The notes under the pieces: model-generated
What the model saw: only the letters and a program-made list of their open reading frames with translations
Told to the model about the DNA's origin: nothing
The model's database searches: none
Part shown: positions 6,601 to 34,230 of the stretch, one piece after another
Numbering within the stretch: the stretch's first letter is position 1
How the letters are laid out: the number at the start of each line of letters is the position of its first letter
IMG/VR virus record: IMGVR_UViG_3300016466_000173
Span: 1-44,717 of that record
Source: a virus
Taxonomy: Duplodnaviria; Caudoviricetes
Reading direction: 5' to 3' (one strand)
Length of the DNA stretch: 44,717 bases
Made by a program: the position numbers and the translations under genes

Positions 6601-9600
6601 GAAATAAACCGTAATAAGATTTCTCAGATAAACCAAGAGATTGCTACCATATCTGAGAGCAAGAAACTTCTTCCTGAGAATAAGGAAGTAGCAGGAGACG
6701 GTGTAAGCACTGCAGTTAATCTTGATGCTATTCTTGGTACAACTCGTGAAGGTGTATCAAGATTTGTAATAAGCGGGAAAACCTTGACCCGTGAACAGTT
6801 TCTCAAGGAGTTGGATAATATGAGCAACCGTAGGCTTCTTCGTGCTCCTGTCTTTGTTGACAATGACGAAGAGGCTCAGAAGTTGTACGAACAAAAAGTA
6901 AAAGATGCCATTCAAAAGCAAAGCCCAAGTCAAGTTTCTGTACAGTCAGAAGCCGGAGTTAGCGAAACGGTGGAGGAAAGAAAACCCGAAACAAAACCTG
7001 AAGTCGCTACCCAAAAAGATTTCCAAAAAGAAATAGACGCTATAGAAGAGCGTAGGAAGAAAGAACTTTCTGATTATTCAGAAGACCAACTCGATGAGAT
7101 TTATTCTATTGGTGATACAAAAAGAACTATCAGAGACTTCGTTAATGCTAAGTATGACAAAGAGATTGCTGACTTAAAGCCAAGTGCAGCAGTAACTACT
7201 GAAGAAGTAACTCAAGCAGAAGAAGATTTAGTGTCTTCAAAGACACGCCTTGATGAACTTGCAGAAGCAATTCCTCAGCGTATTGACTATACTGAGGAAG
7301 ACATTACAAACTTCGATACCTTAGAAGAAGATAAAGCCAAGGGTATAATTACTGCATTGGCTGAGAAGATTAATGATGGAACCAAGTTAACACCTGTTGA
7401 GAGGTCATTGTATGATGCGAACAAAGCACAGGTCGATGAGGTAAGTGGTTTAGTTGCTGAGCGTACTGCAATACAGGAAGAGGTTGCTGACCTTGAGGCA
7501 TTGATTTCAGAAAGCCAACCTACACGTGCTGAACTAACCGATGAGCAAATAGTTGAATATGCTCCTGATGAAGATGTAAGGGATAAAAACAATGATGTAC
7601 TTTTAAAAGCACTTCAATCAAAAAATGTTTCACCACAGGCAGAGCCAATTGTAACTGACCTTGGTGATGTAGTTGTTTTTGAGTACAACAATTTTGATGA
7701 GAACGAAACAAGGACACGTCTTACATTCAAGAAAAAAGCAGATGGAACAATAATCTCAAGAGGTGTTAAGGTAGAAAGAAGTACGGGAGATATACGTGGT
7801 ACTGATTTATTCAAGAACTACGTTGAATCTCAGAGACGTAAAAGAAGAGCAGAGTTCCGTGCTGAAGAAGTTTTAGCAGAAACAACACTTCCACCTAATG
7901 AAACATCAGATTTTAACAGAGGGGTAGCAGAGGTTAAAAAGAATGCTGAAGAGTATCGTAAGTTAAAAAACATAAAAAGGATACCCAATCCTGCACAAAA
8001 GAGTCTATTTACAATAGTATCTGAGATGATGGCTAAAGCATATGAAAAGGTTTTAAACAAACCAAATGATGCTATAGTTAAAAAAGCATATGATGCTATG
8101 ATTGAAGAAACTCTTCAGCAATATGACTTCATTGTATCAAAGGGTTTAAAAGTAGTAAGACATACAGGTAAAGGAGAGCCATATGCCAACTCAAATGAAA
8201 TGCTAAAAGACTTGAGAGATAATAATACTCTCAAATTTTTGCCTAATGATGTAGCATTTGGACAAGATGTAACTGCTGCCACAGATAACATTGGTCTACA
8301 ACCAAGTGGTAGAAAATTACCTGATGGATATGAGATGACTAATTCTGAGGTATTCAGAGTTGTGCACGATTATTTTGGTCACGGAATTTTAGGTAATCAA
8401 TTTGGTCCTATTGGTGAAGAGAATGCAACACTTCAGCATCTTGATTTATACAGTGATATTGCTGCACCTGCAGTTATATATCAGACAAGGGGACAAAATT
8501 CTTGGGTTAATTTTAGTGGAGAAAATTCACGTGCAAATGAACTCAGAAAACAAGCACGTGAGTTAAAGAAACAAGGTAAAGAAAAAGAAGCAAATTTATT
8601 ATTGGAAGAAGCAGATAAAATATTTAAATTTGCAGAACCAAAAATTGGTTTATTCCCAAATATATTTAATTTCAAAAGATATGAATCAGCGAGAAGAATT
8701 AGAGACAAACAAATCCTTGACAATAGACCAAATAAACGAAATTCTGACTTACCCGACTTATTGGCAGCCTATTCTAACAGAAGCCGTTCAACGAGGGGAG
8801 TCAATAAAAGAGACATACGAGAGACTAAAACCATTAGAGGATTTAGTTTAAATGTAATTGCTGAATATAAATTAGACAATCGTATAGAAAGGGGAATTAA
8901 AAAAGCATTCCCATTATTCAAAGGAGTTCAAAAGATTTATGAAATAACTGACGGTGATAAGTATCGTCAGATGATGATTGATGCCTTAAAGGATAATCCC
9001 TATGGTTCATCAGCAACCATATACTCTGCTGAAGATTTCAGTAAAATGAGATTGTTTATAACAGAGGATGGGTCTACAGGTTTTACATTAAGAGAAGATG
9101 GTTTTTTAGGGGGTGGATTTTCTGACCCTAAATTTAATAGACCACAAAATATTGCTCAGTTATTAATTTTAGGTATAAAAGAAGGAGGAACTACTGTTGA
9201 ATGTTTTGATACTATTCTTCCTGATTATTATTCTTATTTCGGATTAAAAGCAGTATCAAGAAATACATTCAACGATGAGTACAGACCAAAAGAATCAAGT
9301 GGTACTGCAGTAAAAGATTGGGATTATCAAACATATAGGAACTTTAATAATGGTAGACCCGATGTTGTATTTATGATTTATGATGGAGGAGATAGAAATA
9401 CCATTGAAGACAGGTTAGGTATTTTTGATGAATACAAAAATTACGAGAAGGATAATACTAAGTCTTTTGATAGTTATGATGATGCTGAAGAGTTTATGAA
9501 GCAGGAGGCAGTTAAGAGACTTGAGTTAGACTTTGAACAATCAACAGATACAACAAAACTAAAAGAAGATGGCAAAAAAATTACTAAGCCCGGCAACAGA

Positions 9601-12600
9601 CTCTTCAATCAGTCTATCCCGGAAGTTTCGGAAATTGCGGATAGATATTTCCAAGGAGCCTTTGGGAGACAACGTCCTCAGTTCTATGGCACAAGGTCAA
9701 TCGACAAAGAAAGAGCCAAAAGAATCTCAGATGCCTTTAAAAGATTAGTCGATAATCCAACTGCTCCCAATGTAAAAAGAGCATACGAGGCAATGGCTCG
9801 TGAGACAATTGAGCAGTATAAATTTATGCTTGATGCAGGTTACTTTGTTGAGATAAACAATGAAGAGCCTTATGGTAACTCAAATGAAATGATTGAGGAC
9901 CTACGCACAAACAAGCGAATGAAAATATTCTCAACCGAGTCAGGCTTTGGTGATGAAAAGATTACACCTGAACAGAGGGACCGCAATGTTCTACTGCGTG
10001 AGTCAGGATTCTATGATGTAAATGGTCAGCCTTTATTGGTTAATGATTTGTTCCGTGCAGTTCACGATTTCTTCGGTCACGCTGAATTAGGCAATTCATT
10101 TGGTCCTATTGGTGAGGAGAATGCTTGGAACGTACACGCACGTATGTATTCACCATTGGCACGTCAAGCAATGACTACTGAAACACGTGGTCAAAACTCA
10201 TTCGTTAACTTCTCCGGGGTTAATGAGCGTGTTGAGGCAATGCGTCAAGAGGCAGCGAATCTTAGGAACCAAGGAAAACTTGCTGAGGCTGAGGCTCTTG
10301 TTGGTAAGATATACGAAGAGATATCTTTTGCAGAGCAGAAGCAAGGAATACTTCCCGAAGAATTTTGGACAGTAGATACTGATGATATAGGAGATGCTGA
10401 GTTCATACCTAATACTAATTTATCTATTGATACAAAAGAATCAAATGTACAGAATGGATTGACTCAGCAGGAGTTTATTTCTGCAGCATCCAATGGTAAT
10501 ATGTCAAATGCAACTAAACTTGCAAACTTTCTGAACACTGCGTTCCCAAGTGTTACCATATCAACTGACAAAGTTTCTTTTGATAATGTAATGGCTCAGG
10601 TTGGAACCGAGATATATATGCGTGGTAACTTAATTGTCTATGGTGTAACCGTAGATGGTGACATATATATTAACCCTGACGTACACAATAGTGAGTCGGC
10701 TCTGTTCAATACAACTATTCACGAGTTTGGTCACGTATGGACAGACTATCTGCAAGGGTCTAAGAAAGGCAAAGCAATATACGCTCGTGGTGTAGAAGTT
10801 ATTCAAGAAGCCATAGCAAATGATGAGAATGTAAAGAAGATATTTTATGCTCAGATGAATAAGTATTCGGGAGACCGGGCACGTGCTATCAATGAAACGA
10901 TGGCTATTCTAATTGGCAATAAAGGTGAAGAGATTGTAAATGAAAGTGTAAAGAATAAATTCAAGGAATGGTTGCTTGATGTTTGGAAATTCATCAAAGA
11001 TAATTTCAAGATGTCAAAAGATTTGTCTGAAGAAGAGATTCAAAACCTCACCCTTGATGGATTTATTCAGACTGCATTGGCAGATATATTTAGTGGCTCA
11101 GAGATATCTCTTACAGACGTTCAGAAAAAAACACTGAAGAATCCTGATGCTATGTTCAGTAGCACTCAGTCTATGCAGTCAATCATACAACAGGCACGTG
11201 CTAATGGATTCTCTGATGCTGCTATCAAACAGGTGCTTCTCAATCGTGGATTCAAAGCAAGTGATATCAACAATGCACTCGTAGTACAGATAGATGTTAC
11301 CACTGATTTGCCACGTGAGTTTGCAAATGTTCAAGGTGGTGTACAAAAAGGGTATCAGTTATTCACAGAGGTACGTGCTGAACTGCAGAGGTTTGCTCAT
11401 ATGGGTCCACGTGGCGGTATCCGTAGAGAACGCACCAAGACGTGGTCAGAGATTCGTGAGAAGGCTATTGAACTTCTGAAGGCAAACCCAATCTATCAGG
11501 CTCAGTCAGATACTGTGCAGATGGAATTGATTAGTGCGTTTGACAGGACGCTGAATACCTCAGCCAATACGAATGTAACCCGTCAGATAAGTGCTATCAG
11601 AAACAATCTTCGTCAGCGTAAGATTGGTGCTAAAGAATTACAACAGGCTAAGATTGCAGTGAAGAACCTTATCCGTTCTGTTCTGCCAAAGTCTGATATG
11701 TATTCTCAGGCTCAGATAAACAAACTGATTTCAATCATAAGCAATGCAACCGAGGCTTCTATCCTATCTGATACAGAGAAGGTGATGAAGATAGTTGAGC
11801 AGCAGAGAGGCAAGATGAAAAAGTCTGTGCTCAAGAAGATGATTGAATTGGTAAACAAGAAGGCTAAACCTGCAATGACTACCACAGGTAAACGCAGGAG
11901 CCGTGGTCTTGACCCGGAGGGACAGGCTTTCTTTGCTCAAGTTAAACCTATCATTCGTGCGGTTATAAATGATGACGTTCAGTTCCTTTCTGATATGGCT
12001 GCTGAGTTGGCACAGGCTGACGCTGATGGCTCAATCAATGAGGCTATATTGAAACAGAACCGTGGTGAGAAACTTACTACACAGGAACAGGCTCTGTTGA
12101 ATAAGGCATATGCCTATGATACATTTGGCGACCTTATGACTATGGAATTGGAAGAAGTTGAGCAGTTATTGGCTGAACTTCAGGACGCACGTGCTGAGTC
12201 ATTGAGAAGACTGAAGACACGTAGGGAAGTAAGAGCAATGAGATATGATGCTCTTAGCCAACAGGCTACTGCACAGGTGTCTGAGTTGAACCCTGAGTTG
12301 TTTGTTGAGGAGACGGTTGAAGTAACACTGCCAAATGGAGATGTTGAAACTATTACAGTAGTTAGACCGAAGAGCCGTAACGAACTTGTTCAAGACAGGG
12401 CTGCAATACGTAGAGCATTTCAGAGTGGTAAGATATGGTCAGGCTTCAAGCAGTTGGTTGCACGTTGGGACTACACCACCATCACAGGTGTAAAGGACTT
12501 TATTCGTAAGCGTATTCTTCACTTGGGTTCAATGATGAATCTGTTTGATAATGACGCTCAAGGAATGACGTTCTTCCGTGACAATGTGTACCGTCCGCTA

Positions 12601-14805
12601 AACAGGATGGATGAGAAATCAAAGGTTGGTTACTTCTTTGAGATGGCTAACTTAGATGCTATGGCGAATAGCATACCCGGAATTACTAAAGGGTACAAAC
12701 AGATTCGCAATATGCTTCAGACAGGAATCCATACGTTTACTATCAAAGGTCAGGAGCAGATATATAATGCAGACAAACTGCTTCGCATCTACGCCTTGTC
12801 ATTGAATGATGTGCAGCGTGAGAAGTTAAAGCAGATGGGTTGGGATGATGCTCAGATACAGAAGATTAAAGATATCGTTGGTCCTGAGCCTATTGAGTTC
12901 GCAAACAAGTTGGTTGAATACTTCAGCAATGATTACTACGAGTCAATCAATAACGTATACTCTCACGTCAATGATGTGAATCTTGGGTACATACCAAACT
13001 ACTTCCCGACAATCACACAGTCTCAGAAGGTAAGTGCTAAGTTATTGGAAGATGGTGACTTCAATGGAATCTTCAATGCTGAGACTGCTCCTGCACTGAA
13101 AGAACGTAGTGACACTTCAGGGCTTATTGAATTGAACTATGACTTCTCTGATGTGGTAGAGAGTCACTTCGTAACAATGGAGAAGTATAAGGCATACGCT
13201 GAGGGTGTAAAAGAATTGAATGCAATCTTCCAAAACCCTGCGTTCAATGTACTTCTTGAGGAGTCAGGATTGAAGACCGTTGTTAAGCGTTCAGTAAACT
13301 TTGCTATTACTCCGAATGCCGGACAGAAAGAAGAGCAGACTGCACTTGGTAAACTGATGACTAAGTTCACCGGGTTTGCACTTGCATTCAAAGCGGTTCA
13401 AGTTGTTAAACAGGCTACTTCATTCGTCAATGCATACGAGGACTATAGTTATTTCCCTGCTGATTCAAGAGTACCATCAGTTATAAAAGGTCCAATCGAC
13501 CTTATGATGTTTATGGTTGACAGTGCAAAGGTTATTGCAACTATGCCAAAGCAGGTGCGTAAAGCATACGGTATGTCAGCAAATATCCGTGACCGTTTAT
13601 TGAAAGGTATTCAGGGAGATGTATATGGTCTTGAGTCAGGCTCAAATGTATTCTCTCCTATAGACAAGCGTACTGATATATGGGCACGTGCAGTACGTGC
13701 ATTCAGAACGGGTGCTGCCGGACCTACAGTTCTCGGTGACATACTTGGTGTAATGGGATATATGGTTAACTATAACCGCAACATTGCAAACGGTATGAGC
13801 GAGGCTGATGCATTAGAAGCATTCAACGATTATAACGCAACTGCTCAAAGCCGAAGGGGTACTGAGAAAATATCTCTGCAACAAAACAGTACAGAGTTGG
13901 CTCGTGCATTCACAATGTTTGGTAGCACTACATTCCTTCAGATAAACAAGGTTCTTGCTGCACAGACAAATATGTTCCGTGCACTGAAACAAGGTCAGAT
14001 GCCAAGTGCTAAAGACATTCGTGCATTTGCTATCAACCTTGGTATTGCTAACGCATTATTCGTAGGTGTATCAAATCTTGCCAAGTTTATTAAGGGTGAT
14101 GACGATGACCGTGAAGAAGTGCTGAAGCAAATGGGCAAGGCTTTGGTTGGTCTTAACCTTATCGAGTCAATACCTTTAATTGGTGCAGCAGTTGAAACTG
14201 CATTGGCTGATATTGAGGGAGAGAAAACAAGAGGCGGTGACAATGTGGTTAATCCGTATATGCAGGTGTACAAAAAAATGAAACGTGCATCTGAGGAAGA
14301 AGTGGGATTCAAGTCAGTGCAGCCTTTGATAGAGATTGTTATCGGTGCACAGGTTGACCCATTCATTGGTCTATACAATGGTGTGGCAGATGGGTTTGAT
14401 GAAGAGGCTATCTATGATTTGCTTGGTATCAGCAAGTCGTACCGTCCAACACAGGAGAAAGAGAAAGCACCACCTAAAGAAAAACCTATGGGCAAGGAAG
14501 ATATGAAACGATACTTCCCTGAAATGTACGAGCAATTGTATGGTCCCGGTGGTGCACTTGAAGAGACAGAAGAGTTCAGACTCGAACAAGAAAGAATCGA
14601 GAGAGAGCAACTCAAGCGAGAAAAGGACCTGATGTATGGATATGAAGAGTCTAATGGTGGTACTGTATGGAGTAAAGAGAAAAAGAAAAGAGGCAAAAAG
14701 GAAGAGTCGGGTACTATATGGGGTGAGAAAGATAGTAAAGGCGGTACAGTTTGGGATGAGAAAAATACTAAAGGTGGAACAGTATGGGGAGAAAAAGAAA
14801 AGTGA
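3670..14805 (+). CDS. Giant (3711 aa) polyvalent-type virion/ejection protein
   Basis: Two copies of an FRxVHDxFGH..FGPIGEENA..TRGQNS domain, a GNAT-like CFDTILPDYY..GRPDVVFM segment, a HEFGH zincin motif, a G/A-rich hydrophobic stretch and C-terminal GGTVW repeats. Confidence 0.8.
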   Translation: MDELRKLYDALIRDGYYTKSFEEFQKQFQDTSYQDKVYGVVSRDGLFTKPKDDFLKQYAVGPAKPIIEPLKKKEEPTLSDIQSGYTDMASSSEGGSSVSSGTKGDPNDPNWGWEDDEPKPYQRTFIPQFEKRPIVTQDNTYVAKPIDMVGMKRYQEYQQQTKALLEQAKKEERAKAQEEEQIFKSQNLAAIKDEQFQKYLADVNANLIDKSEEEVVPELNRRFSAYGFHFEEAAPGADAMYVRTSDGKHELYIDLDPFTTATEVVESKKLRDFINLYARGKEEEKSEDYIGKAVRAQKMRNVGMRNDDGTYSTVKFASFEQDGKYFVVPTLFPKDPNATYTTNKKDWMELPLEEAIAEARKRGELFQFDNDKEAKEFAEGDWKDVNAFDIEGQKFYKEKGLDYYAEKKKYKNYIQLQDELDLIDKILEGESITPEEKMNNPRYFAKDMRRLYTNEMLEQKREEVLKKKDNLLEQVYDLEFMGIDEGNVQKTREDFDLVLGKRQNEIAGEAIKVNAAAKQEYEALNQTALSVYNVPIDKISTIVPKTPQDAENIKNLTSQLVKVKAAQNTAATKFEIAKTYYDAKWNKGINSEYEENWSGFVTSVSDAWNNGQAAEQILLLTLGVKDAANVKDRQEAARLIVENLSDVSGKQSRVLTRTNLARDGEFLKAVLSDPLEAISTLTATSLTQMLPYGSYIVSSAAAAGTAAGAAAGLAGGPFAEVTVPGGAVTGLGYGLRTGMAATMFAMEYTNSILDVMREKGYDLMDPAQVEAALSDETVWAEGGERGTLRGVPIAVVDFLSAGLAGKVFKTSKLASVPVRVGAQVAERALFDPAAEAAGEYLAQTVAGQDIDFKEIAYEALGGLGSNTSHMAVNLYKEARNNSNTALAYELTDINRVARESVSDERISQWANNMHQLGKIDADVNQRIQANVGLRREARELVSVGRASRLLGDGKKVEARVMELLAARNELSATQNRREINRNKISQINQEIATISESKKLLPENKEVAGDGVSTAVNLDAILGTTREGVSRFVISGKTLTREQFLKELDNMSNRRLLRAPVFVDNDEEAQKLYEQKVKDAIQKQSPSQVSVQSEAGVSETVEERKPETKPEVATQKDFQKEIDAIEERRKKELSDYSEDQLDEIYSIGDTKRTIRDFVNAKYDKEIADLKPSAAVTTEEVTQAEEDLVSSKTRLDELAEAIPQRIDYTEEDITNFDTLEEDKAKGIITALAEKINDGTKLTPVERSLYDANKAQVDEVSGLVAERTAIQEEVADLEALISESQPTRAELTDEQIVEYAPDEDVRDKNNDVLLKALQSKNVSPQAEPIVTDLGDVVVFEYNNFDENETRTRLTFKKKADGTIISRGVKVERSTGDIRGTDLFKNYVESQRRKRRAEFRAEEVLAETTLPPNETSDFNRGVAEVKKNAEEYRKLKNIKRIPNPAQKSLFTIVSEMMAKAYEKVLNKPNDAIVKKAYDAMIEETLQQYDFIVSKGLKVVRHTGKGEPYANSNEMLKDLRDNNTLKFLPNDVAFGQDVTAATDNIGLQPSGRKLPDGYEMTNSEVFRVVHDYFGHGILGNQFGPIGEENATLQHLDLYSDIAAPAVIYQTRGQNSWVNFSGENSRANELRKQARELKKQGKEKEANLLLEEADKIFKFAEPKIGLFPNIFNFKRYESARRIRDKQILDNRPNKRNSDLPDLLAAYSNRSRSTRGVNKRDIRETKTIRGFSLNVIAEYKLDNRIERGIKKAFPLFKGVQKIYEITDGDKYRQMMIDALKDNPYGSSATIYSAEDFSKMRLFITEDGSTGFTLREDGFLGGGFSDPKFNRPQNIAQLLILGIKEGGTTVECFDTILPDYYSYFGLKAVSRNTFNDEYRPKESSGTAVKDWDYQTYRNFNNGRPDVVFMIYDGGDRNTIEDRLGIFDEYKNYEKDNTKSFDSYDDAEEFMKQEAVKRLELDFEQSTDTTKLKEDGKKITKPGNRLFNQSIPEVSEIADRYFQGAFGRQRPQFYGTRSIDKERAKRISDAFKRLVDNPTAPNVKRAYEAMARETIEQYKFMLDAGYFVEINNEEPYGNSNEMIEDLRTNKRMKIFSTESGFGDEKITPEQRDRNVLLRESGFYDVNGQPLLVNDLFRAVHDFFGHAELGNSFGPIGEENAWNVHARMYSPLARQAMTTETRGQNSFVNFSGVNERVEAMRQEAANLRNQGKLAEAEALVGKIYEEISFAEQKQGILPEEFWTVDTDDIGDAEFIPNTNLSIDTKESNVQNGLTQQEFISAASNGNMSNATKLANFLNTAFPSVTISTDKVSFDNVMAQVGTEIYMRGNLIVYGVTVDGDIYINPDVHNSESALFNTTIHEFGHVWTDYLQGSKKGKAIYARGVEVIQEAIANDENVKKIFYAQMNKYSGDRARAINETMAILIGNKGEEIVNESVKNKFKEWLLDVWKFIKDNFKMSKDLSEEEIQNLTLDGFIQTALADIFSGSEISLTDVQKKTLKNPDAMFSSTQSMQSIIQQARANGFSDAAIKQVLLNRGFKASDINNALVVQIDVTTDLPREFANVQGGVQKGYQLFTEVRAELQRFAHMGPRGGIRRERTKTWSEIREKAIELLKANPIYQAQSDTVQMELISAFDRTLNTSANTNVTRQISAIRNNLRQRKIGAKELQQAKIAVKNLIRSVLPKSDMYSQAQINKLISIISNATEASILSDTEKVMKIVEQQRGKMKKSVLKKMIELVNKKAKPAMTTTGKRRSRGLDPEGQAFFAQVKPIIRAVINDDVQFLSDMAAELAQADADGSINEAILKQNRGEKLTTQEQALLNKAYAYDTFGDLMTMELEEVEQLLAELQDARAESLRRLKTRREVRAMRYDALSQQATAQVSELNPELFVEETVEVTLPNGDVETITVVRPKSRNELVQDRAAIRRAFQSGKIWSGFKQLVARWDYTTITGVKDFIRKRILHLGSMMNLFDNDAQGMTFFRDNVYRPLNRMDEKSKVGYFFEMANLDAMANSIPGITKGYKQIRNMLQTGIHTFTIKGQEQIYNADKLLRIYALSLNDVQREKLKQMGWDDAQIQKIKDIVGPEPIEFANKLVEYFSNDYYESINNVYSHVNDVNLGYIPNYFPTITQSQKVSAKLLEDGDFNGIFNAETAPALKERSDTSGLIELNYDFSDVVESHFVTMEKYKAYAEGVKELNAIFQNPAFNVLLEESGLKTVVKRSVNFAITPNAGQKEEQTALGKLMTKFTGFALAFKAVQVVKQATSFVNAYEDYSYFPADSRVPSVIKGPIDLMMFMVDSAKVIATMPKQVRKAYGMSANIRDRLLKGIQGDVYGLESGSNVFSPIDKRTDIWARAVRAFRTGAAGPTVLGDILGVMGYMVNYNRNIANGMSEADALEAFNDYNATAQSRRGTEKISLQQNSTELARAFTMFGSTTFLQINKVLAAQTNMFRALKQGQMPSAKDIRAFAINLGIANALFVGVSNLAKFIKGDDDDREEVLKQMGKALVGLNLIESIPLIGAAVETALADIEGEKTRGGDNVVNPYMQVYKKMKRASEEEVGFKSVQPLIEIVIGAQVDPFIGLYNGVADGFDEEAIYDLLGISKSYRPTQEKEKAPPKEKPMGKEDMKRYFPEMYEQLYGPGGALEETEEFRLEQERIEREQLKREKDLMYGYEESNGGTVWSKEKKKRGKKEESGTIWGEKDSKGGTVWDEKNTKGGTVWGEKEK
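6905..7036 (+). CDS. Nested +1-frame small basic protein MPFKSKAQVKFLYSQKPELAKRWRKENPKQNLKSLPKKISKKK (43 aa)
   Basis: ATG after A-rich leader CAAAAAGTAAAAG; resembles small MPFKSxAQ..PE.AKRW phage proteins (from recall, not searched); the main frame is a low-complexity linker here. Confidence 0.65.
   Translation: MPFKSKAQVKFLYSQKPELAKRWRKENPKQNLKSLPKKISKKK
7231..7246. repeat. 16-bp palindromic motif copy 2 (GTGTCTTCAAAGACAC), intragenic
   Basis: Exact copy; read as V-S-S-K-T. Confidence 0.95.
8602..8632 (+). promoter_or_regulatory. Putative internal Bacteroidetes promoter (TTG-N20-TAAATTTG) inside the giant gene
   Basis: Consensus -33/-7 boxes with 20-nt spacing, 48 nt upstream of the nested ORF at 8681. 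Confidence 0.45.
8681..8851 (+). CDS. Nested +1-frame small protein MNQREELETNKSLTIDQINEILTYPTYWQPILTEAVQRGESIKETYERLKPLEDLV (56 aa)
   Basis: Globular-looking composition while the main frame becomes abnormally R/S/N-rich; AT-rich leader and upstream promoter-like motif. Confidence 0.55.
   Translation: MNQREELETNKSLTIDQINEILTYPTYWQPILTEAVQRGESIKETYERLKPLEDLV
9569..9748 (+). CDS. Nested +1-frame small ORF MAKKLLSPATDSSISLSRKFRKLRIDISKEPLG... (59 aa)
   Basis: ATGGCAAAAAAA start after an A-rich leader (ACAACAAAACTAAAAGAAG), in an interdomain linker. Confidence 0.4.
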   Translation: MAKKLLSPATDSSISLSRKFRKLRIDISKEPLGDNVLSSMAQGQSTKKEPKESQMPLKD

Positions 14806-15214: not shown

Positions 15215-15479
15215 TGTCTCTTAGGTATTCAAGATATTCAATTGCAGCCTCAACTTCATCCTGAAAGTATTGGTACTCACGGTCAACAAGATGCTCATAC
15301 ACATCGTTGAGACATTGGTGAATACGGTTTACATATACGAGAATATCTCTTGCACGTTTTACTTCACGCTCCCTTGATTCGGTAGAACTAATAACCACAT
15401 CCTGAATTATAGTTGCAGTGTTATCTGCAACATCAAAGTTCAGTGTTAGTTGTTTGACGTTATACTTCTTGATGGTCAT
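15195..15479 (-). CDS. Hypothetical protein
   Basis: 94 aa, overlaps neighbours in the operon. Confidence 0.65.
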   Translation of the reverse strand: MTIKKYNVKQLTLNFDVADNTATIIQDVVISSTESREREVKRARDILVYVNRIHQCLNDVYEHLVDREYQYFQDEVEAAIEYLEYLRDNGDKKF

Positions 15480-15876
15480 AACTTTTTTTAAGTTCTTCGT
15501 ACTTCAAATGTAGCGATGAAAGTTCTTCTCTCGTCTTTAAAAGTTCAACAATTAGTTCTTGCTTAGTATAATACTGTTCATTTATTGTTTCACCTCTGAA
15601 GATATCACTGCACATCTTGTATTTCTTTTTTAGTTCAGGTATATAGTGGATGGTGGTATCGAACAGTGAGCAGTAGTGTATTATTGTACTGTGGTCTTTT
15701 GCCAACAGGTCCCCAATCTGTGGGAAACTATATCCATTTTCTCTTAATATCTTGGCATAAACAATACGTGCATCTACTCTTTTTCTGCTCCTGTTCTTCA
15801 GCATTATGTCTAATCCAAAAACTTCTTCTATAATCTCTCTGAGTTCTCTTGCTTTTGCTATTTTATCTTTATGCAT
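15460..15876 (-). CDS. DnaA C-terminal (domain IV)-like HTH DNA-binding protein
   Basis: R.RKRVDARIV...GYSFPQIGDLLAKDHSTIIHY matches the Bac_DnaA_C signature. Confidence 0.8.
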   Translation of the reverse strand: MHKDKIAKARELREIIEEVFGLDIMLKNRSRKRVDARIVYAKILRENGYSFPQIGDLLAKDHSTIIHYCSLFDTTIHYIPELKKKYKMCSDIFRGETINEQYYTKQELIVELLKTREELSSLHLKYEELKKSYDHQEV

Positions 15877-22375: not shown

Positions 22376-22678
22376 TTAAATGGTTACTGATTCTTTTAGT
22401 TTGCTTACGATAGTACGATAGTCAGGGTCTTCACGAAGACGTTTAGTCACGACATTTATACCGTGAATAAGTGGTGGGTGCATTGTGTCATAGCCCTCTT
22501 CCTGAAGGAACTTCTGAATGTATATGAGTTGCATTGGTCTTGTGCTACACATATAGTAAAGCAAGTGACGTGCGTCCACGATGGTACGGTTACGAGTCTT
22601 GCTGAACAATTGCTCCTTCGTGATGCCGAACATATCGGCAATGCGTTCTGCGTACTGATTAAATACTTCTTTCTTCAT
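22376..22678 (-). CDS. Second DnaA-C-like HTH protein
   Basis: IADMFGIT..QLFSKTR.R.IVDARHLLYY..H..LIHG. Confidence 0.7.
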   Translation of the reverse strand: MKKEVFNQYAERIADMFGITKEQLFSKTRNRTIVDARHLLYYMCSTRPMQLIYIQKFLQEEGYDTMHPPLIHGINVVTKRLREDPDYRTIVSKLKESVTI

Positions 22679-24870: not shown

Positions 24871-24912
24871 CGGATGAGGGGGGAGTCGAACCCCCCTTGC
24901 AACCATTCATCC
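24871..24912 (-). ncRNA. tRNA-like minihelix (acceptor stem plus T-arm, no D or anticodon arm)
   Basis: GGATGA-ATGGTTGCAA-GGGGGG-TTCGACT-CCCCCC-TCATCC-G on the - strand. Confidence 0.65.
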
Positions 24913-24913
24913 T

Positions 24914-24929
24914 GTGTCTTTGAAGACAC
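24914..24929. repeat. 16-bp palindromic motif copy 7
   Basis: Exact copy abutting the GATase stop codon, 1 nt upstream of the minihelix. Confidence 0.95.
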
Positions 24930-26050
24930 TATAACAGATTGTCTACGTCCTGCTGAGTGTACCATTCGTTGCATCCTGTGCAACAATAGTTGCCATAGCC
25001 ATCGTGCTCAAGGTCACGATAGCAGGACGTGCAGTATGGCGTGTCAACAAACTTGTCCTCAGTCTCGATATCAATACCGCTTAACTGAGCGTAGTAGTCA
25101 TCGAATGAACTGAACTCTAACTGCCTGTAGGAAGGCTCCCACGTAGGCTTAGTGTAATCAACAGGCTCCCACGTGCGGACGGGCTTTGGTCTGTTATAGT
25201 TCACCTCGTATGACTCGTGCATCTTGTCTGAAGAAGTGCGTGGTGTCTGAAGGTTGAAGTAAATCCAACAGGTCACCACCTTATTCTTTTTGAGTCTGAT
25301 AGGTATCTGCTTACGGCAGTACCATCGTGGGTGTCCCTCAAGTTGGTCTAACTTGCTGAGCACCGTGTCGCTTACCTTGAACACGTCCACCTTCACGTTG
25401 TGCCCTACACCCTTCTCGTCAATCAGATACGGCAGTCCTTGAATCAGCAGTGGATACTTGTCCTCAGTCTTGCCTGACGCTACGAACTTTGAGTCAGTGA
25501 GGTATCGGTAGTAGTTGCCGTGCCCCTTCTTGAGTGTGCCGTAGACGGCAACAAGATTGTCTTGCAGTACGTTGTCCTTCGAGTACCACACCCCGTCCTT
25601 GAATGTCCATAGGTCACGGTTGTAAATCTGAAAGGTGCGGGTGCGGGTGTTGATGGTGACGAACCGAACAAGTTTGTTTTTCTCTAACTCAGACTTCCAC
25701 TTGTGGCGTGGCACTGAACCGAGTGACTCAGCCAATACTTTGGAGTCGCACTTCTCAGCATTGCCAAGCCCATAGATAGTCCCGTTCATCATCAGGTACT
25801 CATTCTTTTGAGCACCGCACCTGAACGGGTGCGTGTTGTCGAGACCGACCTTGCCGACAGTGGCGTATCGGAAGTGGGCAATGTAAGGGCGTGGTGTGTC
25901 GAGCACTGCCCAATCCTTTGACTTGTGATAGGTTACCTCGAAGGTGTCGAGCCACACAACCCCCAATCCGTGGGGGTTAATACGTGATGAGTTTTTCAGA
26001 GTCTCTGAGGGAATCTCAATGTTCCGTTGTTTGATGATGATGATGCACAT
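24929..26050 (-). CDS. Class II glutamine amidotransferase fused to gamma-glutamylcyclotransferase (AIG2-like), with C-terminal Zn ribbon
   Basis: MC start (Ntn Cys2), NPHGLG, HFRYAT, NTHPF, NG; then VAVYGTLKKG and LDQLEGHP.WY.R; then CxxC..CxxC. Confidence 0.85.
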   Translation of the reverse strand: MCIIIIKQRNIEIPSETLKNSSRINPHGLGVVWLDTFEVTYHKSKDWAVLDTPRPYIAHFRYATVGKVGLDNTHPFRCGAQKNEYLMMNGTIYGLGNAEKCDSKVLAESLGSVPRHKWKSELEKNKLVRFVTINTRTRTFQIYNRDLWTFKDGVWYSKDNVLQDNLVAVYGTLKKGHGNYYRYLTDSKFVASGKTEDKYPLLIQGLPYLIDEKGVGHNVKVDVFKVSDTVLSKLDQLEGHPRWYCRKQIPIRLKKNKVVTCWIYFNLQTPRTSSDKMHESYEVNYNRPKPVRTWEPVDYTKPTWEPSYRQLEFSSFDDYYAQLSGIDIETEDKFVDTPYCTSCYRDLEHDGYGNYCCTGCNEWYTQQDVDNLL

Positions 26051-27541: not shown

Positions 27542-27573
27542 CAAAGATAGTACATAAAAAGTACATATGCAAA
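27542..27573 (-). promoter_or_regulatory. Bacteroidetes promoter TTTG-N20-TATCTTTG
   Basis: Full consensus. Confidence 0.8.
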
Positions 27574-28062: not shown

Positions 28063-28086
28063 ATCTGTTTTGTTTTAGTTGGTTTT

Positions 28087-28135
28087 ACGTTTCGTCCTTT
28101 CGGACTCATCAGCACAGGCACTCACCTGTGGACGT
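28087..28135 (-). ncRNA. Type III hammerhead ribozyme 1
   Basis: ACGUC^CACAGG-UGAGUG-CCUGUG-CUGAUGA-GUCC-GAAA-GGAC-GAA-ACGU; complete core and three stems. Confidence 0.93.
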
Positions 28136-28141
28136 GGGGCA

Positions 28142-28157
28142 GTGTCTTTGAAGACAC
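28142..28157. repeat. 16-bp palindromic motif copy 9 in an extended hairpin (28136-28163)
   Basis: Exact copy; flanks GGGGUG/UGCCCC pair on the - strand with G-U wobbles. Confidence 0.95.
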
Positions 28158-28184
28158 CACCCCGTTCAACACCACATTGAACTG

Positions 28185-28827: not shown

Positions 28828-29097
28828 TTAGAAAGTTAGGTATGTTCTGTAGTTGTGGTTGTACTGACGGCAAAAGAACTTCATAACGGAAACGTCATCT
28901 GTAAGCAGTACTACCTCATACAAGTGACCCTTTGTGCGTTTGAAGGACTCCTGTACCTCAAGTGCGTTCTCCTCGTCCGCAAGTGGTACAATAGTAAGAT
29001 TGGCTTTGTTCACCGCAATCACCCAATGGGTTGCAGTTACTTTGTCGGTCTCGTTTTCTTCCTGTGACAGGAAGAAGGTGTTTTGTTGGTTTGTCAT
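28828..29097 (-). CDS. Hypothetical early protein downstream of hammerhead 2
   Basis: 89 aa with AT-rich leader. Confidence 0.65.
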   Translation of the reverse strand: MTNQQNTFFLSQEENETDKVTATHWVIAVNKANLTIVPLADEENALEVQESFKRTKGHLYEVVLLTDDVSVMKFFCRQYNHNYRTYLTF

Positions 29098-29124
29098 ATA
29101 GTTTAAAATTAGGTTTGCTTGGTT

Positions 29125-29176
29125 GCCTGTTTCGTCCTGTTGGACTCGTCAGCACGGGCTTCACCCGTGGACAGGC
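29125..29176 (-). ncRNA. Type III hammerhead ribozyme 2
   Basis: GCCUGUC^CACGGG-UGAAG-CCCGUG-CUGACGA-GUCC-AACA-GGAC-GAA-ACAGGC; complete core, 6-bp stem III. Confidence 0.93.
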
Positions 29177-29181
29177 GGGGA

Positions 29182-29197
29182 GTGTCTTTGAAGACAC
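29182..29197. repeat. 16-bp palindromic motif copy 10 in an extended hairpin
   Basis: Exact copy flanked by CGGGGA/TGCCCCG. Confidence 0.95.
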
Positions 29198-29213
29198 TGC
29201 CCCGTTCTGTAGG

Positions 29214-30215
29214 TCACCTCACGTTTGGTGACCAAACCCCGTTGTGGGGGTCACGTGCGTCAGCGTCCCACGCAGAAAGGTGTATCTGCCTTGGGTCAAC
29301 CGCCACGGCTATCTCACGGCTCAGTTTGCCCTGCAAGATGAACCTGCGGTAGTGACGTGCCTTCTCAATCCGCTTCTCAGCCTCAGCCTCGTTGCCCCCG
29401 TACATTGACAGTATGATAGGACGGATACGCTTGAGGAAGGACTCGTGGGACGTGTTGGGTGCGTTCACCGCAGTGTCCACAAGGGCATAGAACAACTCGT
29501 ACCTGCGGATGCACTGCTTCACGCTCTCGAACCTGCTCACAACCCTAAACTCAAGCCCCTCAGAGCCGTCACTGAAAGACTTCTCAAGGGCATACTGATA
29601 GCGACCCCCGTGTCCCCCCTCACCCTGCCAATGACCTGCCTCATTGCGTCCAAAGAGCCTCAGATTGCCGTTGCAGTAGCCGTTCAGAAGACGCTTCTCA
29701 AACAGAGCGTGGATAATGCCACAAAACGGACGGATAGCCTTGCGTAGGTCATCTGAAGACATACCTTTCACGGTGATGGTCACGTGCCCACCGCACCTGC
29801 GGTCAGCAGGGCTATAGCGGGAGTCAATAATCTTCTCAGCCTGTACGAACAGGTCAAAGACCTTCGTCCGCCACTTGCCTTCGGGGAGCAGGGGCAAAAT
29901 GTGGGTGATAGCCTCATAACCGCAAGAGCCGTCACGCTCGAACCCCGCGAACAACGGGTACTCCTTCACGCTCGACCTGTGCAAGGTGTTCTTCTCAATC
30001 TCGAACCCGATAGTGAAACGGCTGATAAACTCACCCTGCTCCTGTAGGATAGCCCTACTGCGGTCTACAGGCTTCAACCCTACCACGTCCACAGGGAAGG
30101 CGGTTTTGTTGCGTTTTAGGGGCTTTGGTGCTCCGTGATAAGAGCGAATTTCGTCACGTCCGTAGTCACCTGTGTTGGTGTACGTGATACCTTGTAAAAT
30201 TTGATTGGTGTTCAT
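29214..30215 (-). CDS. Putative amidoligase (COOH-NH2 ligase, Amidoligase_2-like)
   Basis: IGFEIE, DGS..YE, CGGHVT and LEFR motifs; GATase-GGCT gene nearby. Confidence 0.75.
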   Translation of the reverse strand: MNTNQILQGITYTNTGDYGRDEIRSYHGAPKPLKRNKTAFPVDVVGLKPVDRSRAILQEQGEFISRFTIGFEIEKNTLHRSSVKEYPLFAGFERDGSCGYEAITHILPLLPEGKWRTKVFDLFVQAEKIIDSRYSPADRRCGGHVTITVKGMSSDDLRKAIRPFCGIIHALFEKRLLNGYCNGNLRLFGRNEAGHWQGEGGHGGRYQYALEKSFSDGSEGLEFRVVSRFESVKQCIRRYELFYALVDTAVNAPNTSHESFLKRIRPIILSMYGGNEAEAEKRIEKARHYRRFILQGKLSREIAVAVDPRQIHLSAWDADARDPHNGVWSPNVR

Positions 30216-30281: not shown

Positions 30282-30959
30282 TTAGTTAGATGACCCCCTT
30301 TGTGAAAGTGCACCCTGTAAGAACTGAATAGCAAGGGCTATCTCTTCCTCAGTGTTACCTGTGGTCACCTGCCCGTTCACGTCCACACGGATTGAGACGT
30401 TGCGACCTAACTGCAGGTCAGCAGCCTTGAAAGACAGGGTCAATATGGTGGGCACACGTACTTCCACTTCAGCAGCACTGCCTTCGCCTTCGCCTTCTCC
30501 GTCTCCTTCGCCTTCACTTCCACCACCTTTGGTGCTCTGTTCCGTCTCAGCCTGTGCCCTTGCGAACTTCAGCAACCCCTCAAGGGTTCTGTTCGGTTCA
30601 TTGCCTTCAGCCTCAGCCTCATCACACTTTGTGGTGAACAGGGCAATAACGTCCTGTGATAACTTCCCTGCCTTCAGCACCTTGTAAAAGTAGGACTTTT
30701 GCCACCCGAAAACTTTCTTCCCGAACTCTTCGTTTGACCACGTCACGCCTTCCTCACGGAAGACTGCCTTGCCTTCCTCAGACGTGAACCACTCGTGGGC
30801 TTTGACCACAAGGACTGACAGGGTCAGTGTGTTGTTGAACTTGCTCTTTTGAGCGTTTGTTAGTGTCCGTTGCACTCTACGGATTTCTGTGATTTGGAGT
30901 CCTGCCTTCACTGAAGGAAGGTTAAGGAGTGCCGACTCGATTTGCAATAAATTGCTCAT
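30282..30959 (-). CDS. First early gene; hypothetical with possible HTH and a G/E linker
   Basis: 225 aa; EEFGKKVFGWQKSYFYKVLK resembles an HTH; GEGDGEGEGEGS linker. Confidence 0.7.
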   Translation of the reverse strand: MSNLLQIESALLNLPSVKAGLQITEIRRVQRTLTNAQKSKFNNTLTLSVLVVKAHEWFTSEEGKAVFREEGVTWSNEEFGKKVFGWQKSYFYKVLKAGKLSQDVIALFTTKCDEAEAEGNEPNRTLEGLLKFARAQAETEQSTKGGGSEGEGDGEGEGEGSAAEVEVRVPTILTLSFKAADLQLGRNVSIRVDVNGQVTTGNTEEEIALAIQFLQGALSQRGSSN

Positions 30960-31021: not shown

Positions 31022-31051
31022 CAAAGATAGTATAAAGAATGTACATTGCAA
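31022..31051 (-). promoter_or_regulatory. Major leftward early promoter TTG-N19-TATCTTTG
   Basis: Consensus with an upstream A-tract. Confidence 0.75.
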
Positions 31052-31089: not shown

Positions 31090-31460
31090 CTGCAGTCACG
31101 GGCTTTGCCGTCCCTGTTTGTACGCCCTGTGGACGTGCTCTGTCCCTGCTGATTATTAAGGAAGGACAGGAGACGGGCGGTGGGCTAAAGAAGGTCTCTC
31201 TGTTTGCGTCCCTGTTTTCAGTGTCTTTGAAGACACGGGACGGGCGGAGACGGGGAAACCTGCAGGGGCGGACGGGCGGACGGCAGGGCGGAGACAGGCA
31301 GGGCAGGGCGGTGCTCCCACCACAGGCAGGGCAGGGCTGCAGGGGGCTGCGTAAAAACGTCAAAAAGTTCGGACGGGGAAACCGAAAGGTGACCCCCACC
31401 CCCTTGAGGCGGGGGGCGGTTCCGTGGGGGGTCGGCTCACGCAGGATGGCGGGGGAACCC
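31090..31460. other. GC-rich non-coding divergence region with GGGC(A/G)G repeats; possible genome terminus
   Basis: Lies between divergent promoters; repeated GGCAGGGC/GACGGGCGG units and G/C tracts. Confidence 0.55.
31221..31236. repeat. 16-bp palindromic motif copy 12
   Basis: Exact copy in the divergent non-coding region. Confidence 0.95.
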
Positions 31461-31468
31461 AAAACCTC

Positions 31469-31497
31469 TTGACATCTCACATTTTTTTGTAACTTTG
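31469..31497 (+). promoter_or_regulatory. Rightward promoter TTG...TAACTTTG
   Basis: -7 box ends 4 nt before the ATG at 31502. Confidence 0.65.
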
Positions 31498-32093: not shown

Positions 32094-33713
32094 ATGATAG
32101 ATAGTTCTGTTGGGTATTCACCTAAGGACCTTCAGTTTGGAGACGAGGGTCGCAAGAAATTAATCAGTGGCATATCAAAGATTGCCGGAGCAGTAAAGAG
32201 TACATTAGGACCGAGGGGCAATACTGTCCTGATAGAGTCAACCAATCACACGGGGGGTATAACAGTAACCAAGGATGGTGTAACTGTTGCTAAGGCAGTT
32301 GACCTGATGGACCCTGTAGAGAACCTTGCGGTGCGAATGATGAAGGAGGCAGCAGACAAGACTGCTAACTCAGCAGGTGACGGTACGACTACTGCGATTG
32401 TATTGACTGAGGCTATTGTGAAGTCAGGAGACCAACTGATGAACAGTGAGACCAATAGGACATTGGTACTGCGAGAGGTAGTGGAGATGGGCAACAAGGT
32501 GGTGGAGAACCTTACGGCAAGGCATACCAAAGTAACTGAGCAGACGTTGTTGGACGTAGCAACTATATCGGCAAATAACGATAAAGCCATTGGTGAGATT
32601 ATTGCCAATGTTTACAAGGAGATTGGCGAGAACGGTATTGTTACGGTTGAGAGGTCACAGACAACTGAGACGTATGCTGAGAGCACCCACGGGTTCAAGA
32701 TACAGAGGGGTTACTATTCGCCTTTGTTCATCAATGACCATAAGAAGGACGAGTGTGTTTATGAGGACGTGATGGTTCTGATAAGTGACGCTGAGATACA
32801 CAACCTGCTGCAGATAGAGCCTGTGCTGAAACCAATTATTTCAGAGGGGAAGAAGTTGCTTATTATAGCACCTTGCTCAGTGAACGTGGTGAACACATTG
32901 GCTGCCAATGTTGTGAAGAACAACTTGAAGGTATGTGCCATTGAGCCACCATCGTTTGGTTATAAGAAGCACGAGTTGATGCAGGACATTGCGTTGGCGG
33001 TAGGTGCAAAGTATTTCTCTGAGAAGACGGGTGACGACTTGAGTTTGATAACGTATGCTGACCTTGGTCACGCATCTAAGATTATCGTTGACTCGAAGAA
33101 CACTGTGATTATCAACTCTGAGTTTCGTACCGACTTCAATGAAGTCGAGAACAGGGTTGCTCAGTTGTGGGAGGCACATAAGGCTGCAAGTAAGAAGCAC
33201 GAGAAGGACTTCATCCTATCAAGGATAGCATCACTGACAGGTGGTGTTGGTGTCATCCACGTAGGTGGTACAACTGACATTGAGCAGAAGGAGACGTATG
33301 ACCGTGTTGATGACGCAGTGTGTGCAGTGAGGTCCGCTCTTGAGGAGGGCATACTTCCCGGAGCAGGTAAGGCGTTGTTTGAGGAGGCACTTGCTATCAA
33401 GCCTGAGGATGGTGACACCAAGGAGAGAGAGATAGCAAAGAAGATATTGCACCATTCACTTCAGATACCGCTTATGCAGATACTGCTGAACGCAGGGATG
33501 AACAGTGAGAAGGTGTATGGTCCTGAGCATATGAGAGAGAGTGGCTTCGGTTACAATGTGGTTACGGGTGAGTTAGGTGACCTGATTGAGATGGGTGTGA
33601 TTGACCCGGTGAAGGTGACACGCTCAGCATTGCAGAACGCCATCAGTGTAGCAACAACAATCCTTTCAACAAATGCCATTATCACAATGGCGAGAACATA
33701 CGAGACAAAGTAA
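32094..33713 (+). CDS. groEL: Phage chaperonin GroEL
   Basis: TLGPRG, TKDGVTVAK, GDGTTT, RVDDAV and GVIDP.KV motifs. Confidence 0.97.
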   Translation: MIDSSVGYSPKDLQFGDEGRKKLISGISKIAGAVKSTLGPRGNTVLIESTNHTGGITVTKDGVTVAKAVDLMDPVENLAVRMMKEAADKTANSAGDGTTTAIVLTEAIVKSGDQLMNSETNRTLVLREVVEMGNKVVENLTARHTKVTEQTLLDVATISANNDKAIGEIIANVYKEIGENGIVTVERSQTTETYAESTHGFKIQRGYYSPLFINDHKKDECVYEDVMVLISDAEIHNLLQIEPVLKPIISEGKKLLIIAPCSVNVVNTLAANVVKNNLKVCAIEPPSFGYKKHELMQDIALAVGAKYFSEKTGDDLSLITYADLGHASKIIVDSKNTVIINSEFRTDFNEVENRVAQLWEAHKAASKKHEKDFILSRIASLTGGVGVIHVGGTTDIEQKETYDRVDDAVCAVRSALEEGILPGAGKALFEEALAIKPEDGDTKEREIAKKILHHSLQIPLMQILLNAGMNSEKVYGPEHMRESGFGYNVVTGELGDLIEMGVIDPVKVTRSALQNAISVATTILSTNAIITMARTYETK

Positions 33714-33719
33714 AACAAC

Positions 33720-33812
33720 AGTCAGGTGGCGGAATGGTAAACGCTCGCTTCAAGGTGCGGTTAGTCAACGAAATGTAAAGCTAACGTACAGGTTCGAATC
33801 CTGTCCTGACTG
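33720..33812 (+). tRNA. Atypical tRNA (Leu-like, probably CAA) with a shortened anticodon stem and long variable arm
   Basis: Acceptor AGTCAGG/CCTGACT, D-arm GCGGAATGGTAAACGC, T-arm ACAGG-TTCGAAT-CCTGT; anticodon arm CGC-TTCAAGGT-GCG is irregular. Confidence 0.65.
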
Positions 33813-33831
33813 CAAACAAATAAATAAAAAT

Positions 33832-34230
33832 ATGAGCGGAGACGTAAAATTTGAAGGGACCCGTGAAGAATGGGAAACCTTAGTAAAAAGAAACAAAGTA
33901 TTTGCAATTGCCAAAGTTTGTCATCAAGCAAACAAAGCGTGGTGTGAGTCCCAAGGAGATTTATCTCAACCTGATTGGATTGATGCTCCTGAGTGGCAAG
34001 TAGAATCAGCAGTCAATGGTGTTAATTTTCGTTTAGACAATCCCGATGCCGGACCTGATGCTATGCACAATAATTGGAGTGCTGAGAAAGTATCTCAAGG
34101 ATGGAAGTGGGGACCCATAAAAGATGCTGACAAGAAAGAGCATCCTTGTTTGGTTCCGTTTGACCAATTACCTGAGTTTCAACAGAAGAAGGATAAGTTG
34201 TTCTCTGCTATTGTAGATGCATTAAAGTAA
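33832..34230 (+). CDS. RyR-domain protein
   Basis: HNNW..K...GW.WG..D..KK.HPCLVPF..LPE..KD signature; true start at MSGDV after the tRNA. Confidence 0.85.
   Translation: MSGDVKFEGTREEWETLVKRNKVFAIAKVCHQANKAWCESQGDLSQPDWIDAPEWQVESAVNGVNFRLDNPDAGPDAMHNNWSAEKVSQGWKWGPIKDADKKEHPCLVPFDQLPEFQQKKDKLFSAIVDALK

Follow-up and report, generated by a model that had tools for sequence, protein, structure and literature searches.

We found that positions 29,125 to 29,176 of this phage genome are, by core and topology, a type III hammerhead ribozyme on the minus strand, and that this ribozyme sits in a recurring cassette in which a hairpin, a cutter, a leader and an ATG follow one another. In the reading that we prefer, and hold to be probable though well short of certain, the cassette cuts an early polycistronic mRNA constitutively and in cis and leaves protected ends.

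The window, which is the whole virus record of 44.7 kb, carries genes for a primase, a helicase, Sak, GroEL, an amidase and virion proteins. The ribozyme (copy 2) and a second copy spaced 1 kb from it (copy 1) lie on the minus strand, as do all neighbouring genes, in the following setting:

31022 to 31051, minus strand: Bacteroidota-type promoter-like site (TTG-N19-21-TAnnTTTG), assigned by its match to the assumed consensus
29214 to 30215, minus strand: upstream gene, 333 aa, with a glutamine-synthetase-like fold, amidoligase-like or COOH-NH2 ligase-like by protein model and Foldseek
29177 to 29203, minus strand: hairpin directly 5' of copy 2, which folds and would end the upstream cleavage product
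29182 to 29197, no strand assigned: 16-bp palindrome GTGTCTT-YR-AAGACAC at the tip of this hairpin, of which the genome has 14 exact copies
29125 to 29176, minus strand: type III hammerhead ribozyme copy 2, from its Rfam RF00008 match and its own fold
29098 to 29124, minus strand: A-rich leader from copy 2 to the start codon, from sequence and leader alignment
28828 to 29097, minus strand: downstream gene, 89 aa, no family match
28136 to 28163, minus strand: palindrome hairpin 5' of copy 1 (palindrome at 28142-28157)
28087 to 28135, minus strand: hammerhead copy 1 in the same cassette, cut at 28131/28130 with the ATG 68 nt later
24929 to 26050, minus strand: class-II glutamine amidotransferase or gamma-glutamyl cyclotransferase gene, conserved as a partner to the amidoligase-like gene
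24872 to 24912, minus strand: tRNA top-half mimic (6-bp acceptor-like stem and T arm), behind the palindrome at 24914-24929 and before an A-rich leader

Sixteen of the 22 primase matches name a host, and all 16 are phages of Bacteroidota. Four sites with the sequence TTG-N19-21-TAnnTTTG, which we take to be the Bacteroidota promoter consensus, stand ahead of early-region genes. Because of the primase matches and these promoter-like sites, the host very probably belongs to the Bacteroidota. The promoter-like site next to that at 31022-31051 lies at 27542-27572, and both ribozymes fall between the two. A host-type -7 promoter box was found within 150 nt upstream of none of 41 distinct hammerheads (0/41), ruling out a ribozyme at the transcript start behind its own host promoter, and the minus strand showed no terminator-like site between the genes that flank the ribozyme; we therefore place the cut inside a transcript. 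Elsewhere in the window, a GC-rich, purine-skewed non-coding stretch with short repeats and one palindrome copy (31140-31470) separates the divergent early and late arms and is probably the genome end or a packaging region. A tRNA-like match to Rfam (33720-33812, plus strand), whose variable region is long, overlaps an ORF on the same strand (33673-34230), the phage GroEL gene spans 32094-33713, and a 3711-aa protein is encoded at 3670-14805.

The sequence-only reading had placed copy 2 just after an amidoligase gene and 72 nt ahead of the next ATG. The stop codon of the upstream gene does lie 44 nt before the predicted cut. For a confident model of its protein (pLDDT 87.7), the Foldseek matches listed were ligases of the glutamine synthetase family (GmaS, GS, YbdK and Dop), the best of them weak (E 3.3e-4, TM about 0.3). 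No Pfam profile, those of amidoligases (PF12224-like) included, matched this protein or 25 aligned members at E values up to 1, and the protein had no PHROG match and no PDB sequence match. The gene and its amidotransferase or cyclotransferase partner occur together in 26 loci, adjacent in 6 and no more than 4 kb apart in the other 20. From the weak fold match and this gene context, 'amidoligase-like' is a reasonable name for the modelled protein, below the level of a profile assignment. The distance of 72 nt holds when counted from the cut (29170/29169) to 29097, and is 28 nt when counted from the end of the motif. The 89-aa product of the downstream gene had no homologue in 36 related loci.

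Read from 29176 to 29125 on the minus strand, copy 2 consists of the 5' strand of stem III (GCCUGU), a C, stem I (CACGGG and CCCGUG, 6 bp) around loop 1 (UGAAG), the core segment CUGACGA, stem II (GUCC and GGAC, 4 bp) around loop 2 (AACA), GAA and the 3' strand of stem III (ACAGGC, 6 bp). The core is CUGACGA/GAAA and contains every element of the RF00008 core (C3 U4 G5 A6 N7 G8 A9, G12 A13 A14, A15.1-U16.1, H17), G10.1-C11.1 opens stem II, and all 16 pairs and all core bases are intact. A GUC triplet occupies 29172-29170, from the position of which we predict cleavage after C29170, between 29170 and 29169. Folded alone, the minus strand of 29125-29176 formed a three-way junction (z -3.3) that none of 200 shuffled sequences equalled in stability, and in both the MFE and the centroid structure helices I and II were closed by loops and helix III was open. 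All architectural features named in the sequence-only reading were thus found, and the strand, which it had left out, is the minus strand.

RF00008 matched copy 2 at 29124-29177 with 44.5 bits (E 4.1e-7), 4 bits below its gathering score of 48.5, and copy 1 at 28084-28138 with 41.1 bits, also under that score. An Rfam scan of the window at the gathering threshold returned a tRNA only and neither hammerhead; both appear in Rfam only in E-value mode. Since a single match passed the cut-off in seven related loci rich in such motifs, we concluded that the RF00008 cut-off misses most of this hammerhead subfamily. A structure scanner returned two matches in the window, the two copies, with 16 and 17 pairs. 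In 300 genomes simulated with the dinucleotide content of the window, it gave no match with at least 16 pairs and 12 weaker ones.

The two copies differ in ways that keep the structure. Pair 4 of stem I is G-C in copy 2 and A-U in copy 1, the compensatory change already noticed in the sequence (CACGGG:CCCGUG against CACAGG:CCUGUG). Pairs 3 and 4 of stem III, which had been described as different yet paired, are U-A and C-G in copy 2 and C-G and A-U in copy 1, both compensatory, giving three compensatory pairs in all, one in stem I and two in stem III. Stem II is identical, both loops differ and the core differs at N7 only, in agreement with the first description. Between the copies, 10 of the 32 variable positions are changed, and the nearest relatives of copy 2 sit in other phages, with 4-6 differences; a recent duplication of copy 1, against which the sequence-only reading had also argued, is thereby ruled out. 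Overall, copies diverge as much within a genome (13.3/32) as between genomes (13.1/32).

We searched with the upstream protein and obtained 35 viral loci. Type III scanner matches numbered 40, in 22 of these 35 loci, and all 40 lay on the coding strand. An alignment of 32 scanner-found rows was 98.5% paired, with two-sided changes at 12 of 15 pairs, a count that is partly circular because pairing was a requirement of the scanner that supplied the rows. Covariation was tested instead with sequence-only patterns. A scan of viral sequences gave at least 131 loci and at least 110 distinct matches; among the 110 distinct viral matches listed, 1205 of 1210 unconstrained stem cells were paired, compared with 60.9% for permuted partners, and the first four positions of stem I showed all four Watson-Crick types. 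Pairing at these loci, the loss of which would have spoken against the sequence-only reading, was thus kept. In metagenomes, a pattern made of a palindrome and half the core only gave at least 153 loci and at least 119 distinct matches, of which 3 were too short and 116 usable. All 116 usable matches listed had six of six stem I pairs, and 110 of the 116 had GAAAC exactly 12 nt after the core; an A closed loop 2 in all 110 metagenome family members listed. The pattern specified neither the GAAAC nor this A. Covariation is present in all three helices among the viral and metagenome pattern matches listed. These large sets support selection for structure on the type III family, a conclusion for which the comparison of two copies, with three compensatory pairs, is thin by itself. 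The same geometry is also common in Patescibacteria assemblies, to which 61 of the 80 genome-scan rows listed (L169-L247) belong by title. Among the genome-scan matches listed, 1354 of 1386 free cells were paired (126 distinct matches), and five genomes picked from them (G001-G005) held 1-7 hammerhead matches each. When the cassette was compared by blastn with 50,697 annotated phage records, two short matches came up, both attributable to chance.

The pair at 10.1-11.1 varies across the family. Among the 110 metagenome members listed it is U-U in 33 and A-A in 10, and it tracks the base at the cleavage site: U-U goes with A17 in 32 of 33 (GUA), A-A with U17 in 9 of 10 (GUU), and G-C with C17 (45) or A17 (20). 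The variants are carried by metagenome loci L297-L449 and by L004, L005, L009-L012, L014 and L026. U10.1-U11.1 is tolerated in hammerheads (PMC3088659), and the section of that paper on core variation makes no mention of A10.1-A11.1. The coupling of core and cleavage triplet across diverse stems may hint at tuning; shared descent may also account for it.

Copy 2 has the two bases of a conserved tertiary contact, a U at the 5' end of loop 1 and an A at the 3' end of loop 2 (UGAAG and AACA), for which the contact is predicted. In natural hammerheads this U and A form a conserved Hoogsteen-type contact (PMC3064770, PMC6155905). Because this contact is conserved, the family would appear to be selected for fast cleavage at cellular Mg2+. 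Most type III motifs, though not all, also have an extra-helical pyrimidine near the 3' end of loop 1 that forms a U:A:U triple (PMC6155905). The penultimate base of loop 1 is a pyrimidine in copy 1 and in 105 of the 110 metagenome relatives listed and a purine in 5 of 110; in copy 2 it is an A, a departure from a feature that is typical of the class rather than defining. A 5-nt loop 1 occurs in only 1 of the 110 metagenome members listed, and UGAAG recurs in three other intact members (L165, L171 and L244). Judged from these bases, the U:A:U contact cannot form in copy 2 as usual, and copy 2 may cut more slowly for want of the usual penultimate pyrimidine. This atypical loop 1 had been overlooked in the first description. 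Folded in context, copy 2 has a competing fold that hides stem III and is more stable by 0.6 kcal/mol, and the probability of stem III drops to 0.09-0.36 in a folding model without tertiary contacts. In the same model this probability is below 0.5 in 26-30 of 32 family members; the competing fold is not special to copy 2, and we rejected a riboswitch-like reading of it.

The earlier account of the surroundings had also missed the cassette. The arms of the hairpin directly 5' of copy 2 can extend, in our folds, into the 5' strand of stem III. It has no U tract on the minus strand, and we rejected it as an intrinsic terminator. Such a hairpin is a property of the family. The 35 nt that precede stem III reach a folding energy of -8 kcal/mol or better in 26 of 32 members from the protein search and in 90 of the 111 members listed from the patterns, compared with 7/32 and 5/111 for the downstream 35 nt. 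Its sequence varies widely. On the other side, the cut lies at a near-constant distance from the ATG (median 66-68 nt; among the metagenome members listed, median 66 and 10th-90th percentile 63-72, n=107/110), and the leader of copy 2 has no Shine-Dalgarno motif. The same leader also follows palindrome hairpins that have no ribozyme. Behind some ribozymes the leader contains a second conserved hairpin of the CCGGAGG/CCGTAGGG ... CCTCC/CCCTAC type, with the ATG about 90 nt from the cut (L004:12132, L005:12405, L006:10962, L007:10955, L009:10962, L011:3918 and L014:12322).

The tip of the hairpin belongs to a genome-wide repeat. GTGTCTT-YR-AAGACAC occurs in the window in 14 exact copies and in none with one or two mismatches (0.09 expected), at positions 697, 7231, 14806, 16682, 20962, 22816, 24914, 26074, 28142, 29182, 30251, 31221, 36212 and 44075. 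The copies lie in both orientations. Six of the 14 fall within ORFs; those between genes are part of longer hairpins and are joined to cutters. Related phage lineages carry their own palindrome arms, repeated likewise. The invariant arms around a variable YR centre suggest a candidate site for a dimeric phage protein that binds DNA or RNA, and a further role as an RNA hairpin is suggested by the longer arms of the copies between genes. The products of two DnaA_C-like HTH genes in the window (22376-22678 and 15460-15876) and of gene 30282-30959 are candidate palindrome binders.

We surveyed the slot behind the ligase gene in 27 loci, comprising the window, 25 of the 35 protein-found loci and one annotated phage; L003, L013, L017, L021, L024, L025, L027, L028, L034 and L035 were left out as near-duplicates or incomplete. 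A type III hammerhead lies 34-74 nt behind the ligase stop in 17 of the 27. In the 26 loci that also show the amidotransferase gene, the two genes are adjacent in 6 and separated by inserted DNA in 20, where the interval is highly variable (437-3930 nt). The 20 slots with inserted DNA hold a type III hammerhead in 16 cases, a tRNA-like element in two and nothing in two, and there is no cutter in any of the six loci with adjacent genes. The slot loci are related, and the six with adjacent genes are among the most distant, so that these counts are not independent events. Two loci, L020 and L167, each carry 14 palindrome copies, many as hairpins before genes, and have no hammerhead in the DNA examined. 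Because of these two loci and the two of 20 slots without a cutter, we concluded that the ribozyme is dispensable in this phage group. Among annotated phages the ligase-like protein matched one uncultured record; the 34 kb examined from it contain 14 of its own palindromes and no ribozyme behind the gene.

Other elements occupy the same position. The tRNA top-half mimic of the window and those at L001:10936 and 11195, L012:3336 and L023:10908 have a T arm with a UUCGA loop, a hairpin before them and an A-rich leader behind them; this element may be a signal for processing by RNase P. Longer tRNA-like sequences, which ARAGORN leaves uncalled, also lie behind the palindrome (L006:17649, L007:18139, L008:13646, L010:9352, L012:9691 and L014:18767). 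Type I hammerheads with a hairpin stem III were found at L015:9638, L016:11376 and 13106, L017:12558, L019:12201 and L002:11217, and in five of six folded examples (L015-L019) stem III is the lineage palindrome, which again puts a hairpin just 5' of the cut. On these sequences, three unrelated candidate cutters still share one position relative to hairpin and leader.

Constitutive cutting, the reading that we prefer, would proceed as follows. The early transcript would start at the promoter-like site near 31030. The ribozyme would fold during transcription, with the 5' U of loop 1 docked on the 3' A of loop 2, and would cut after C29170. The upstream piece, with a 225-aa gene and the amidoligase-like gene, would be left with a strong 3' hairpin and a cyclic phosphate, an end expected to slow 3' exonucleases. 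The downstream piece would begin with a 5'-OH and have the 5' strand of stem I in a terminal hairpin, followed by the standard leader and the ATG 72 nt on. The small inserted genes would thus gain a defined 5' end, with stability and translation independent of upstream sequence, and newly acquired small genes would be insulated from the conserved enzymes that flank them. Transcription through copy 2 and its cis-cleavage are presumed in this explanation; the protection of the ends, which we take from general knowledge of RNA decay, and the benefit to the phage are likewise presumed. For hammerheads clustered in prophages, cleavage of 2-kb transcripts has been observed both in vitro and in E. 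coli (PMC3088659).

A bolder and doubtful proposal, to which we lend some tentative credence, is that the cassettes form a modular, protein-addressable punctuation code for mRNA, in which a palindrome, swappable cutters and rate-setting core classes set mRNA level and timing separately for each early gene that is newly acquired. If so, a phage protein would read the lineage-specific 16-bp palindrome on DNA, RNA or both, the cutters would be the type III hammerhead, the type I hammerhead with the palindrome as stem III and the tRNA top-half mimic, cut by RNase P of the host, and the G-C/C17, U-U/A17 and A-A/U17 classes would cut at different rates.

We considered it unlikely that the cutter is regulated or tuned, with a palindrome-reading phage protein (acting on the RNA hairpin or on DNA) or the competing fold setting its timing or rate and the core variants giving graded rates. 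The palindrome would fit such a role, since its arms are invariant within the genome while the stems of nearby ribozymes vary freely, and since they differ between phage lineages; so would the near-isoenergetic alternative fold and the link between the 10.1-11.1 pair and the cleavage-site base among the metagenome members listed. However, many members have unrelated hairpins in this place (UUCG, GAAA or other loops), even in genomes with the palindrome elsewhere (L010-L012), and the link of core and triplet may reflect descent. The stem III strand did not pair back onto the hairpin more than in the swap control (2.97 against 2.69 +/- 0.25 of 5 nt), and we rejected a specific snap-back of this strand after cleavage.

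It seemed to us distinctly improbable that cutting makes the downstream (or upstream) message unstable or silent, in the manner of glmS, and stands in for a terminator or works as a timer that limits toxic early genes. Cleavage by glmS does lead to degradation by cellular RNases (PMC6765202), there is no intrinsic terminator between the genes, and the downstream genes are small and variable. The standard leader at a fixed distance behind almost every copy nevertheless fits translation of the 3' product, and its presence behind palindrome hairpins without a ribozyme also speaks against decay.

We gave very little weight to a reading in which the ribozyme rides along in units of palindrome, ribozyme and leader that serve as recombination joints for gene shuffling, as T4 PeSL cassettes do, or in which cleavage and ligation yield circular, gene-length RNAs. 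The highly variable gene content between ligase and amidotransferase, with the cassette marking insertions, would suit joints, yet the copies are as divergent within as between genomes, there is little homology beyond the 16 bp, and strict covariation points to selection on catalysis. As to circles, Perreault et al. raised circular products as a possibility and report having found no circular or spliced products (PMC3088659). That copy 2 is a decaying, inactive remnant, as its atypical loop 1 and competing fold might suggest, is scarcely credible given its 16 pairs and intact core, the UGAAG loop of intact L165, L171 and L244 and the occupied orthologous slot in 17 of 27 loci.

The function of bacterial and phage self-cleaving ribozymes near certain genes is regarded as open (PMC6765202, PMC6155905), and the cassette across relatives would offer a testable answer: the transcript is cut, a hairpin protects the upstream 3' end, and the downstream piece restarts from a standard leader. 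Unrelated cutters that replace one another in a single slot amount to a natural experiment, rebuildable in a Flavobacterium or Bacteroides reporter, and the family is a rich natural source of compact insulator-like parts and of core variants, among them A10.1-A11.1 with GUU.

The hammerhead class and the gene-flanking phage setting are already known, and one more hammerhead adds little. Like other type III hammerheads (RF00008; the sTRSV-type loop-loop class), copy 2 has the topology, the full core, a GUC site, short stems I and II, a loop 1 that begins with U and a loop 2 that ends with A. Unlike them, it sits in an intergenic region of a DNA phage with a fused 5' hairpin, and it has a 4-nt loop 2 and a 5-nt loop 1 lacking the penultimate pyrimidine. 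Hammerheads flanking genes in phages and prophages, with processing of polycistronic RNA as the proposed role, were described by Perreault et al. 2011 (PMC3088659). Such hammerheads come in at least two copies, intergenic and on the coding strand of an operon, as do those of the window. In both cases a long transcript carries several ribozymes among small variable genes, processing to operon- or gene-length mRNAs is proposed and U10.1-U11.1 variants occur, whereas the parts of that paper drawn on here describe no 5' hairpin, no palindrome repeated across the genome and no tRNA-like elements in this slot (PMC3088659). Its supplementary alignments may contain members of this family. In the literature searched, which holds few subscription papers, we found no paper on the fusion of hairpin and hammerhead, the tRNA-like swap or the palindrome, and none on a link between amidoligases and ribozymes. 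The gene-association tables of the twister and 2015 ribozyme-discovery papers reportedly are where such a ligase link would probably show.

Two further kinds of system resemble parts of the cassette. Dispersed palindromic phage operators, such as the conserved inverted repeats of phiC31, and the T4 PeSL cassettes are near-identical inverted repeats that occur many times across a genome, mostly before genes, as does the palindrome of the window; by contrast, 6 of the 14 window palindromes lie inside ORFs, and the intergenic ones are lengthened and fused to cutters. The RNase III sites of the T7 early transcript and RiboJ-type insulators combine an upstream hairpin with a defined downstream 5' end. 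The cassette resembles them in its cut between genes, its hairpin upstream and its defined 5' end downstream, and differs from them in that its cutter would be the RNA itself, acting without a host nuclease, leaving a 5'-OH and a cyclic phosphate, and natural in origin.
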